Below are positions 4,759 through 8,689 of a DNA stretch of 64,000 nt, one piece after another. The notes under the pieces were generated by a model. That model had not been told where the DNA came from. It was given only the letters and a program-made list of their open reading frames with translations, and made no database searches. The position numbers and the translations under genes were made by a program. This DNA comes from Ctenodactylus gundi (lineage: Eukaryota): assembly GCA_048771875.1 (NCBI GenBank), contig CM109711.1, forward strand, positions 4,239,768 through 4,303,767, read 5' to 3'. Numbering within the stretch: position 1 is the stretch's first letter; each line of letters begins with the position of its first letter.

Positions 4759-6310
4759 TGACCACATCTGTTTCAATCAACAAGTCACAGGTGTAATGTG
4801 ACATGGAGAGAAGTTGTTAAAAGGCCAGTATTCAAATTTGTGCTGTTACTGTTCTCGAAAATCCCCAAGGAAACAGCCCCTCTGATTGGGCCTGAAAATG
4901 TTAACCTCAGGGAAATCAGCCTGGGAAGCAGTCCTGTGCAGCACCCATGCCCCCCTTTAACTAAGTCTGTAATAGTTGAACTGTGAAGCTGTGTAGCTAT
5001 TTGTGCAGCTCAAGGTCAAGAATACAGCCTATTGCCAGGACAGGCAAGGAGAGAGGGCCAAAGACAGTGTGTACTGAAGTTTGCTTTGTGTGAAGAGAAA
5101 CTGTTTCAGCAAACTTGTTCTGCAGGCATTTCTATTTGTTACTGTGTTCTATGCTCGTTGGCTAGCAAGTCGACACCCTGTGCAAAGTGTATAGAAGTAT
5201 CCTGCCCCTGAGCTAGAGAGACCCAAGCCTTTTTGGAATTATTCATGCGAAGGTACCCTAGCAAGGTTAATAAATCTTCCTCTCACTTCTGACCTCCAGG
5301 CTCTGAGTCTTGTTACTGCTGGGTTTATCAAATTTCTGTAACATTCCTGGAGGATGGTGTAGTCTTTGCGGGAGCAGTTTTCCAGTTCTGTGACTAAAGC
5401 TTTCCTGAATACAGTAGGGAAGTTTTTGAGGCCCGAGGGGAAGCTGGTCCAGGTTAGCTGTCCTTTTTGTCACTGTGTCTTTTTACTCAAATGCAATCAG
5501 ATGCTGGCTGACCTCTGCCAGACCCAATCAGGAGAAAGCACCTTTCAGATCTAGGCAGGTGAGCATGCAGGAGGGTGCACAGGTTAAGAACAACTGGATG
5601 CATGGCTTCCACTGTCTTTGACCATACGCAGGTCTTGCGCAGGTCCACAGTCATTAGTACGCGGTGCCTTGACTAGGTGCGGTTGGTGCACTAGCTGTGT
5701 TTCAGGCTAGTCCGTCCCCTCATTTTCTCTGGCCTCTGAGGACACAGGATGCTGTCTGTGGTCCACTGGGTTAGTTGTCCCCTTTTGCCAGTCTTACCCT
5801 TCTATCGTGGTCCCAGATTTTAGGGAATCTCTGGAGCACTTGCACTAGGAACAGCTGAGGCACCAGCCATGTGTCAGCCGCAAGGAGGGGTCCATCCTAT
5901 TTCCTGTGGATGGAGCGTCTTTAAAGTTAATACAAGCAGGGCATTTGGGCCAGGGCCCCAAGTGTCTCGTCACTGTGGTGCCCAATTTAGATAACAAGTT
6001 TCTCCCTAAGAGCGAGCCTGGTGCCTCTGGAATTCAGAGGAACCAGTGCCAGACCTGCTATCTTTCTTAGCAGGTGTCATGGCCCCAAAGTGAGGTGGAG
6101 GCTGTCAGTAGTCATGGGGACTGGTCCCACTAGCAGGGGCTGTGAGGGACCTTTTGAGGCCAGGCACCAGCAGTTACTCAAAGGACCACAGAGAAACTCT
6201 CCAGGAGACTAAAGTGGAGAACACGAACCAGTATGCGCTGTCCTCGCATTTCCTTGGGTCTCCTGTGATAGGCTGCGCATTTGCAGCTTGAGGCAAAGGC
6301 AGTTCCAGCC

Positions 6311-7199
6311 TCACAGCTGGCTCCTGGCTGGGCAGCACCAGTTGGGACAGGAGCAAGAGACAGGGAACCATCCCACAGTGGGCACAGTGCCAGTGCCTGC
6401 TGGGCTGTGTGAGCTAGGGCAGGAATGTGAGGTGGGGAGACAGAAGCCATCTGCTCTTTGTTTTTGGACAGTGGGGCCTCTCACTCTGATCTCCAATTCC
6501 AACAAAAACTCGAAGAAAGTGATCTTTTGGGGGAGAGGAGAAGAGTGTGGGAGTATCTCACAGAGGACAGAAAGAAATGGGGGCCATGTCTGGGTGGGTG
6601 GATAATTGACCTGAAGCTGGGCACCTTCCCCACCTCTCGGGTGCAGGCTTTGTGGTTTGAGATGACAGGGAAGGGTATGGACGTGCTCTAAGTTGAACCT
6701 CTGGCTCTGGATCTGGGGAGGTGGCTGAGCAGGGCGCAGGGCCTTGCTCATCTGGTGGGGCATGAGGAATTGCTGCCACTGGCTGCATCGACCTTGGGAT
6801 GGCCAGCAGGGCACACAACAGGGGCTCATCTTCTGGCTCCTGGGCCAGGAAGGTGGGAGGTGGCTTTTGAGGCTTTTGGTGTGTTGTGAGCACTGCCATG
6901 GACCCTAAGGACGCAGGAAACCGCAGCTGGTCAGGTCGGCAAGCAGCCAAAGCATACCAAGAGCCAATGTAAGGAAAGTGAACTGGGTCTCCCTTGCAGC
7001 TCTCCCTTATACGAGCAACCATGGCCAAGTCCAACATTCCTTCAGGTGGCCATTCTGCTTCCAGTGTGGGCCACTCTCCTTCACAAAGGACCTGGTGGCT
7101 CTCTGGCTTCATCCGCACACCATAGTTTGCAGAGTAACCAGCTTTGAAGTGGCTCAGCACAGCCTGTAGTATGTCAGCTTCCCTCTCTCCTACAGCCAA
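6311..7199 (-). mobile_element. Endogenous gammaretrovirus-like gag fragment (MA/p15-like domain), antisense in ZG16-A intron 2, with a frameshift
   Basis: The minus-strand ORF 7199..6558 reads ..CEGEWPTLEAEWPPEGML...DPVHFPYIGSWYALAA...KPQKPPPTFL. From memory, this matches the MLV Gag MA motifs CSAEWPTFNVGWPRDGTF, PDQVPYIVTWEALA and PKPPPPLPP. A second ORF (6829..6311) continues in another frame. The two are joined into a single ORF in copy B. Confidence 0.6.
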
Positions 7200-8689
7200 A
7201 GGAACCCATTTTATGTATGCCTACCATGTGGCCAGTGTCACAAGAAGAGGACAGGTGACCCCTGATGGAGACCACCCGGGCACCTGTCTGGCTGTGCCCC
7301 GCAGGAGCTTAGGTGTGGCTTCTGCATAGGGGGTTTCCTGGAGATGTTCAGCTCGACAGTGACTAATGACCAGACACTAGTCCATTCCCAGCCTAGGCCA
7401 TGTGCCAATCACCATGAAGTTGCAGAACCAGGCCCAATAAGTGCTCATAGCCTGAAGGGGACCTTAAGGATGTGAAGTTGTGAGACCACAACATCAACCA
7501 GACTCACTTAGCAGAACAGTTGCTCATTCACTCACCAGTCCCACAAGAGGTTATCACAAAAATCTCTATTTAAATTCCTCTAAATTAATGCTGCTGTTTA
7601 ACCCAATCTGGTAACCTATAACCTATAACCTGTTAGCTAGACCTGCAATTTCCTGATGACTGGAATCCTCCAGTCCCTCGTGTCCCAAGTTTCCGGTCAT
7701 CGTCTGCCATGGAAGGAGGGGAGTGGATACTTACAATCTCTTTCGAGGGCACTCTAATTGTTTTCTGTGGGGATCAATCTGCAAGGGCTCCTCACTACCC
7801 ACCCCAGGGACAACCTACCTAGTGTGGACATCCACTGTAAGTCTCTGTCTCACTCTGCCAGCCTGTAGTGTCGGTCATTAGCTGTGCAACTGTTTTCATG
7901 TGTCAAGAAAGGGACCCCAGAATTCCATCAGAGGTGCACATTTCCTGGTTCCAGGGACTGCAGTACGCTACAGGGTCAGGAATAGTAACCCTGACCCAAA
8001 TGGGTCCAGCCAGTCTTATTACTGGTGTATCACTGGGGCTTCCAGGAATGTTACAGACATCCAATACCACCAGGAAATATCAAATGAACAGAGGTTAGAT
8101 GAAGATTTATTACGCTAGTATGCCTTTTTCTAGATCATTCCAAAAATGGAGGGCCAGAACTCCAGGGCAGGCTACTTTCACACACTTTGTGGGATCAAGG
8201 GGGAGCCTTGCTGTCCAGCAAGCTGGGGACACGGAGATATCAGCCTGGCAAGTTTGCACAAACAGTTTCGTCTTTACACAAAGCCAGCTGCAGACAGCAC
8301 CCTTCGTCCTTGGCCCTGCAGCACACTCTCTCACTGCCGGCCTAGGGGGCAGGCTCTGTGCTTGTGCTGGAGCTACACTGCCAGGCACACCGCTTGACAC
8401 TTTAACTGTTACAGACTCAGCAGAGGGGCGGAGGGTGAGTGCTTTCTCTTAGGTTGTTTCAGGCCCAGTCAAGAGGGGCTGCTTTCCTGGGAATCTACCA
8501 CGATGTTACAATTCCTGTGCTCCAACACGTGTGACTTGGCAAGTCACGTAGCAAGGAACTTTTAGGGACCGGAAATCTGTGTGTGTCAGCCTCCACCCAA
8601 AGTTTAAAACTCCTTTGTAATATTCCTGTCAGATACCTTTCATGTCTGGTTCCTGTCTCTCTCTCTCTGTCTTCCTTTTGGAGACCAGG

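Follow-up and report, generated by a model that had tools for sequence, protein, structure and literature searches.

The window analyzed here, a 64-kb stretch of the genome of the gundi Ctenodactylus gundi (contig CM109711.1), has a GC content of ~50%, contains 0 Ns and carries a direct tandem duplication involving the gene ZG16 and the beginning of KIF22. Using human ZG16 and KIF22 queries, tblastn located two copies of ZG16 and one of KIF22, all on the + strand. The duplicated unit, delineated by self-BLAST and MAFFT, comprises ZG16 together with the CpG-island promoter, the first exon and the beginning of intron 1 of KIF22. Unit A (1..18846, + strand), whose left end is cut by the start of the window, contains ZG16 copy A and an orphan KIF22 CpG-island promoter with exon 1; unit B (26455..41633, + strand) contains ZG16 copy B and the functional KIF22 promoter, exon 1 and intron 1 start. 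The main alignment pairs 1-18701 with 26455-41126 and is followed by a ~377-bp indel, beyond which 18718-18846 aligns with 41504-41633 at 83% identity. From the 3′ end of ZG16 to the KIF22 promoter, the 6.3 kb of unit A (10132-16488) and the 2 kb of unit B (36892-38901) have no detectable homology.

The coding sequence of ZG16 copy A (4164..9843, + strand; exons 4164-4218, 4374-4506 and 9528-9843) was modeled by splicing and reproduces exactly the annotated protein P0001 (167 aa, ‘zymogen granule membrane protein 16-like [Ctenodactylus gundi]’), to which a two-exon assembled protein is 100% identical over 147 residues. That of copy B (30703..36613, + strand; exons 30703-30757, 30910-31042 and 36310-36613) gives exactly P0122, a protein of 163 aa with an altered C-terminus. 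KIF22 exon 1 occupies 41024-41080 and ends in a GT donor, the remaining KIF22 gene lying at 45854-55917. Within intron 2 of ZG16 copy A, a first-pass annotation of the window had flagged the region 5390-7860 as a sharply bounded tract of near identity with unit B, and had attributed it to repeated non-allelic gene conversion between the tandem copies or, alternatively, to patchy mis-assembly of haplotypes.

Mosaic divergence between the two units

Copies A and B were globally aligned with MAFFT, identity was computed in 200-column windows, the alignment was segmented with hidden Markov models (HMM), and mismatches were counted tract by tract. Over 11,547 ungapped aligned columns the two copies are 89.8% identical. 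The variance-to-mean ratio of mismatches reaches 6.3, 10.2 and 16.2 in intervals of 50, 100 and 200 bp (chi-square p 5e-206 to 3e-175), and the uniform divergence that the first-pass annotation had named as the outcome contrary to its by-eye mosaic is rejected by this formal alignment. The longest mismatch-free run measures 1079 bp, when ~66 bp would be expected if divergence were uniform and 136 bp is the maximum in 1000 permutations; this Sawyer-type longest-run test was chosen over GENECONV because, with two sequences only, each variable site is a difference. Inside the flagged region, the longest mismatch-free run is 280 bp.

A three-state HMM resolved nine high-identity tracts, T1 to T9, across the whole duplicated unit (coordinates are those of unit A, with the partner in unit B in brackets). 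T1 lies at 114-659 (26572-27125; 97.8% identity) and T2 at 1061-2482 (27579-29008; 97.1%), with a 10-bp scrambled patch at 1446-1455. T3, at 3501-4532 (30045-31068; 96.3%), takes in the first two coding exons of ZG16 and its promoter-proximal region, and T4, at 4770-4853 (31116-31199), is an 84-bp segment at 100%. T7, at 9268-9815 (36064-36597; 97.6%), runs from the last part of ZG16 intron 2 into coding exon 3, most of which it covers; the two exon-bearing tracts, T3 and T7, come close to the ~95% previously read for the exon regions. T8, at 17263-17397 (39674-39813), is 97.8% identical, and T9, at 17430-18701 (39856-41126; 99.7%), contains the KIF22 CpG island and exon 1 and extends 45 bp into intron 1, in line with the ~100% claimed for the KIF22 promoter block. 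A finer two-state HMM added mini-tracts at 3062-3110, 6318-6444 and 9033-9087.

The two remaining tracts, T5 and T6, both lie in ZG16 intron 2 and account for the flagged region. T5, at 5416-6142 (31718-32424; 96.9%), has 22 of 707 columns mismatched and one 20-bp indel, i.e. 3.1% divergence where ~3% had been read for 5390-6150. T6, at 6614-7865 (33052-34296; 99.1%), has 11 of 1245 columns mismatched and one 7-bp indel, 0.9% compared to the ~0.5% read for 6600-7860, these figures for the flagged region being within sampling error; the 2 differences counted by eye within 6840-7240 were recovered exactly, at 6912 and 7193. Both tracts stand out from their flanks (Fisher p = 1e-38 for T5 and 3e-87 for T6): upstream, the ~80% previously noted before 5390 is 74% across 4854-5415, and the fall described past 7860 leads to 77.5% across 7866-9267. 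The tract proposed at 5390-7860 is therefore real, but it is not peculiar to that place, the mosaic extending across the unit with at least nine tracts, nor is it a single one of 2.5 kb: T5 and T6 differ in identity (Fisher p = 4e-4) and are separated by ~470 bp of old divergence (gap 6143-6613, partner 32425-33051, ~64-76%), which itself holds the 127-bp mini-tract 6318-6444 at 95%. The coordinates first given for the partner in copy B fell in the right region but were off by up to ~45 bp.

The segments sort into three classes, as the first-pass annotation had suggested in speaking of discrete levels of identity. The inter-tract background segments are 74-80% identical (77.5% when pooled); the six of them are mutually homogeneous (chi-square p = 0.13), with a pooled Jukes-Cantor (JC) distance of 0.27. 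T1, T2, T3, T5 and T7 form a homogeneous ~97% class (p = 0.44, JC 0.022-0.038), and T6 and T9 a class at 99% or above, also homogeneous (p = 0.11, JC 0.009 and 0.003, respectively). All tracts pooled are heterogeneous (p = 4e-9). Within segments, the mismatches of T5 and T6 are Poisson-like; over-dispersion in T2 (D = 3-4.7, p = 0.0005) and in the gap 6143-6613 hints that several small events took place there.

The edges of the tracts are sharp, as had been claimed: base-level alignment at 5416, 6142, 6614 and 7865 shows steps completed within 10 bp, with homology continuing beyond them at ~75%. Several edges adjoin copy-specific insertions or indels (4533, 5367, 6444 and 18701). An A-specific ~170-bp retroposon at 4584-4753, with a 17-bp target-site duplication, splits T3 from T4; a B-specific 69-bp insertion lies 50 bp to the left of T5; a B-specific ~150-bp short interspersed element (SINE; B 32733-32882), also with a target-site duplication, sits exactly at the right end of the mini-tract 6318-6444; and the ~377-bp indel marks the end of T9. 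T7 ends on the right ~28 bp short of the copy A stop codon, at a point where 12 bp are deleted from copy B. Starting exactly at the end of T7 (9816-9843 versus 36598-36613), this deletion together with substitutions remodels the last codons of copy B, the C-termini reading NYPSEYSSC in A (167 aa), NYPTC in B (163 aa) and SDCSSC in hystricognaths. As the edge lies inside the last coding exon, the two proteins are near-identical except at the C-terminus (SEYSSC versus TC).

In T9, the perfect run extends over 17429-18507 (1079 bp), and all four mismatches and the one indel are in the last 194 bp, a tail at ~97%. The CpG island has a GC content of 62% and a CpG observed/expected ratio (o/e) of 1.0. 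In the orphan exon 1 of unit A, a 1-bp insertion at 18617 frameshifts the short open reading frame (ORF; MDAGASVPSF... versus MDAGASARRSRREMAAATS). The orphan KIF22 promoter faces ZG16 copy B and might give rise to read-through transcripts.

Such blocks raise the question of an artefact of assembly or polishing, whether by false haplotype duplication, collapse of paralogs or consensus polishing across them. An identical block of 1079 bp in a GC-rich CpG island, seen in a single assembly, is the kind of sequence where this could arise. However, the background divergence of 23-27% is far beyond the allelic level, copy-specific retroposons are flanked by target-site duplications, the units differ in structure downstream, the 64 kb contain no Ns, and three distinct ZG16-like proteins are annotated; moreover, tracts of at most 1.4 kb with unique diverged flanks are easily spanned by long reads. 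A C. gundi sample is named in the acknowledgements of the Phase I paper of the Vertebrate Genomes Project (VGP; PMC13320880); like the 66.9-Mb length of the contig and the absence of Ns, this bears on the assembly type only indirectly. Overall, we consider an artefact very improbable, and unlikely in particular as the origin of the 77%/97% mosaic, though somewhat less so as that of the perfect 1079-bp block. The specific alternative of patchy haplotype mis-assembly fits poorly and was rejected: the copies are not similar at an allelic level, they are not colinear throughout, and there are no gaps at the junctions.

A retroviral relic beneath two of the tracts

ZG16 intron 2 is 957 bp long in the naked mole-rat but reaches 5021 bp in gundi copy A and 5267 bp in gundi copy B. 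In copy A it contains a degenerate gammaretrovirus-like endogenous retrovirus (ERV; 5330..7259, - strand), with a gag remnant at ~7259-6591 and a protease-reverse transcriptase (PR-RT) remnant at ~6057-5330. The minus-strand ORF 6561-7220 matches the Pfam family Gag_MA (PF01140, E = 5e-8, 33.2 bits for a cutoff of 30), and tblastn with Gag and Pol queries of Moloney murine leukemia virus detected pol (E = 1.8e-10, pol residues 77-346) and gag (E = 1e-6). Copy B has the same arrangement (gag 33624-33376, pol 32086-31692), and in each copy the minus strand carries gag 5′ of pol. Since Pfam found no match in seven further ORFs of intron 2, the PR-RT assignment rests on the tblastn matches.

The element resembles a class I (gammaretrovirus-like) ERV in having a Gag matrix domain (PF01140) and PR/RT in the expected order on one strand, with broken frames. 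Unlike an intact one, it is internally deleted between gag and pol, truncated in RT and interrupted by many stops, its protein identity to murine leukemia virus is 26-29%, and no long terminal repeat (LTR), primer-binding site or target-site duplication is recognisable. More precisely, no tRNA-Pro primer-binding site was found within 3 mismatches near its 5′ end (other types were not scanned), the minus strand of 7200-8120 read by eye contains no recognisable LTR end, and the outer 5′ end was not located near 7865, no outer LTR or target-site duplication being recognised there.

The coincidence between the ERV and the tracts, already remarked on in the first-pass annotation, holds at finer scale: the PR-RT remnant underlies T5, the Gag_MA remnant and leader underlie T6, and the divergent gap 6143-6613 sits between the gag and pol remnants. 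Pol homology passes the left edge of T5 by ~70-85 bp and gag homology passes that of T6 by ~23 bp. The presence of the same broken ERV in both copies indicates that it predates the duplication of the unit. Thus, the edges at 5416, 6142 and 6614, being internal to a shared old element, are exchange breakpoints and not insertion ends. Past 7865, the ungapped alignment continues for more than 200 bp at ~78%. The ERV is absent from intron 2 of the naked mole-rat, in which only exon-proximal sequence aligns. As far as can be seen, the ERV was a passive passenger of the exchange and not its cause.

Outgroup distances and the origin of the tracts

The hystricognath relatives have a single ZG16. In the naked mole-rat, Heterocephalus glaber (locus L001, JH172470.1:630392-652011), the gene is compact (1.6 kb from start to stop) and no second ZG16 was found within 10 kb on either side, which is compatible with a duplication in the gundi lineage. 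A KIF22 exon-1-like block is found at 17675-17872 of L001, ~6 kb 3′ of ZG16.

Alignment of the naked mole-rat to gundi is confined to the vicinity of exons, with 75-85% identity. Where A, B and the naked mole-rat all align, we computed uncorrected three-way distances, pAB between the copies and pAN and pBN from each copy to the mole-rat. For T7, pAB is 0.025, with pAN 0.228 and pBN 0.223; for the exon-2 part of T3 the three values are 0.039, 0.163 and 0.152, and for the T9 tail 0.021, 0.271 and 0.271. The background gives 0.189, 0.273 and 0.320 in the 3′ untranslated region adjoining T7, and 0.165, 0.305 and 0.281 in a promoter-proximal segment. Judged by the outgroup, the tracts thus evolve almost as fast as ordinary sequence; the two copies nevertheless resemble each other about eight-fold too closely there. 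The coding sequences behave in the same way, with synonymous (dS) and nonsynonymous (dN) distances of 0.08 and 0.017 between ZG16 A and B, against dS 0.46-0.51 and dN 0.10 to the naked mole-rat.

These distances bear directly on selective constraint, according to which the high-identity tracts would be slowly evolving functional sequence (exons, promoters, enhancers), as might be thought from the three tracts that hold ZG16 exons or the KIF22 CpG-island promoter. Alignable tracts are 15-27% from the naked mole-rat but 2-4% between copies, and dS is 0.08 between A and B versus ~0.49 to the outgroup and 0.27 for the background. The normal outgroup divergence of T3, T7 and T9 and of synonymous sites implies that constraint is not the explanation. 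This control covers T3, T7 and T9; T5 and T6 lack a counterpart in the naked mole-rat, and for them the argument is that they consist of decayed intronic ERV sequence with broken frames, bounded by step-like edges. We regard constraint as extremely improbable, and rejected it as an account of the tracts on the grounds of their normal outgroup distances and low synonymous A-B distance.

The outgroup also provides a scale for age. In units of the gundi-mole-rat synonymous distance, the background stands at ~0.55, the ~97% class at ~0.06, T6 at ~0.02 and T9 below 0.01. As the background JC of 0.27 is about half of that distance, the duplication took place in the gundi lineage once this had separated from Hystricognathi. 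Unique substitutions relative to the naked mole-rat are roughly balanced between A and B in background segments (15 versus 28 and 22 versus 15). Note that the exons, with a dS of 0.08, make the duplication look younger than it is (K ~0.27), so that the gundi ZG16 paralogs can be neither dated nor placed in a tree from their exons.

Recurrent non-allelic (interlocus) gene conversion between the tandem units A and B is the best reading of these data and, in our judgment, probably the correct one. The discrete classes, the sharp edges and the outgroup control support it, as they do the repeated conversion proposed in the first-pass annotation; from them we infer conversion as the mechanism, its recurrence in place of a single event, and the exclusive involvement of A and B. 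An old tandem duplication of ZG16 and the KIF22 promoter and exon 1 would have occurred in the gundi lineage at a time when the ERV already resided in ZG16 intron 2. Non-reciprocal copying during the repair of DNA breaks, with the paralog as template, would then have acted repeatedly between A and B in limited GC-rich segments that stayed similar enough to pair, and the intervening segments would have escaped at or soon after duplication and diverged freely. T5 would have been last homogenised with the ~97% class (JC ~0.03), and T6 more recently (JC ~0.009). The tracts are GC-richer than the background (55% versus 45-46%; Mann-Whitney p = 0.009 for copy A and 0.0006 for copy B), and GC-biased gene conversion would raise the GC content of converted tracts.

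Several points weigh against recurrent conversion. The GC content of the tracts may simply reflect what they contain (exons, CpG island, ERV). The flagged ERV tracts T5 and T6 are without an outgroup homolog, intron 2 of the naked mole-rat being only 957 bp long. The background, at ~77% identity with perfect runs of at most 56 bp, is below the usual tolerance of mammalian homologous recombination, so that the tracts must be assumed to have stayed in concert continuously. The comparison involves only two gundi copies and single-ZG16 relatives. Finally, five tracts share a divergence of ~3% (p = 0.44), which is not necessarily expected from independent events and could indicate one unit-wide event.

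Such an event might have been a single complex repair, e.g. break-induced replication with several template switches, that made the ~97% layer and was followed by one or two conversions giving T6 and T9. Template switching in break-induced replication is documented in yeast, and this scenario would account for the equal divergence of the ~97% tracts and for the interleaving of converted and unconverted segments over ~18 kb. The over-dispersion of T2 and the mini-tracts are better explained by several events, however, and we know of no citable mammalian germline precedent for multiple switches over 18 kb between templates that are 77% identical. A single repair event seems to us a rather distant alternative. 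We give equally little credence to the more far-reaching proposals that the dispersed ~97% tracts, of equal age over ~18 kb, record one multi-template-switch event between 77%-identical paralogs in a mammalian germline, which would make them a natural trace of break-induced replication, or that the ERV tract and the orphan KIF22 CpG island are kept identical as shared ZG16 regulatory modules.

The history may also be reversed. A third gundi ZG16-like protein (P0121 / KAM5228212.1, 167 aa) is annotated on the same 66.9-Mb contig, outside the window, and its coding sequence is absent from the 64 kb analyzed; ~9-10 of 104 exon-3 residues set it apart from copies A and B. A and B could have duplicated recently, or been homogenised by unequal crossover, at JC ~0.03, with the ~77% segments later imported from this third paralog, in which case only the tracts at 99% or above would be recent A-B conversions. 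The homogeneity of the ~97% class from 114 to 18701 (p = 0.44) and that of the background (p = 0.13) would then follow automatically, and the derived exon-3 residues that A and B appear to share would fit a topology (C,(A,B)), with the third copy C about as old as the A-B background. This history nevertheless needs at least seven imports, over half of the unit, from a ~77% donor and thus across the same recombination barrier; the non-homologous blocks of 6.3 kb (A) and 2 kb (B) would also have to be imported or quickly rearranged, and the rough balance between A-unique and B-unique background substitutions speaks against it. We therefore see it as possible but considerably less plausible than recurrent A-B conversion.

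Recurrent conversion of this kind has well-known textbook cases, such as the primate gamma-globin genes, human RHD/RHCE and CYP21A2/CYP21A1P. The gundi pair resembles other converting tandem duplicates in the direct orientation of paralogs ~26 kb apart, in the tracts of near-identity of 0.1-1.4 kb set in older divergence, in their sharp edges with homology beyond, in the involvement of both exonic and non-coding sequence and in the higher GC content of the tracts. It is unlike them in its background divergence of ~23-27%, unusually high for a pair still exchanging, and in the occurrence of at least five dispersed tracts at one level of divergence. In models of the type of Teshima and Innan, concerted evolution is said to proceed with the ‘escape’ of segments. 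As in those models, some segments of the ZG16 pair are homogenised and their neighbors, often bounded by indels or transposons, diverge at the neutral rate; whereas the models predict escapes scattered over time, the escaped segments here share a single age (p = 0.13), which points to an escape at or soon after duplication. Three reviews of interlocus gene conversion describe the same kind of pattern (PMC3924818, PMC3966225, PMC4132178). In the literature library searched, no prior paper was found to link ZG16 with duplication and conversion. The process itself is ordinary and the new element is its instance in the gundi ZG16 pair, made mildly unusual by the high background divergence and by dispersed tracts of equal age. 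It leaves the current understanding of gene conversion unchanged, but would offer a worked example of concerted evolution limited to discrete segments of an old tandem duplicate, a neutral intronic ERV included, and of an orphan KIF22 promoter copy that has stayed a perfect match to the functional one along more than 1 kb.

Other features of the window

The block of unit A without counterpart in B (10132-16488) is AT-rich, with a strong AT skew and several SINEs. It includes a ~620-bp element of which an inverted repeat occurs at 22983-23607, with 72% identity. A scan of 1-45 kb for ORFs of at least 130 aa revealed no extra coding gene that would account for T1 or T2.

A composite SINE of ~250 bp is present in at least 10 copies, 75-86% identical to each other, and consists of a B2-like tRNA-derived head, a B1/7SL-like half and an A-rich tail. 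Examples are found at 13717-13953, 15715-15970, 19026-19261, 25211-25368, 34524-34780, 43307-43560 and 53805-53990. Some copies are common to both units and others are unit-specific, indicating that the family was active both before and after the duplication. As an Rfam scan at gathering thresholds returned no match in the window, this classification was made by eye only.

Directly 3′ of the last KIF22 exon, the segment 56000-58300 has a GC content of 77% and a CpG o/e of 0.9. Its translations at 57673-57759 and 58150-58239 (+ strand), which came up as chance tblastn matches, contain a poly-Ala tract and ‘GGVVTTTASGKR.RKN’ and resemble MAZ; the segment probably represents the CpG island of MAZ with its first exons. 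The gene order in the window is then similar to the ZG16-KIF22-MAZ order of human 16p11.2.

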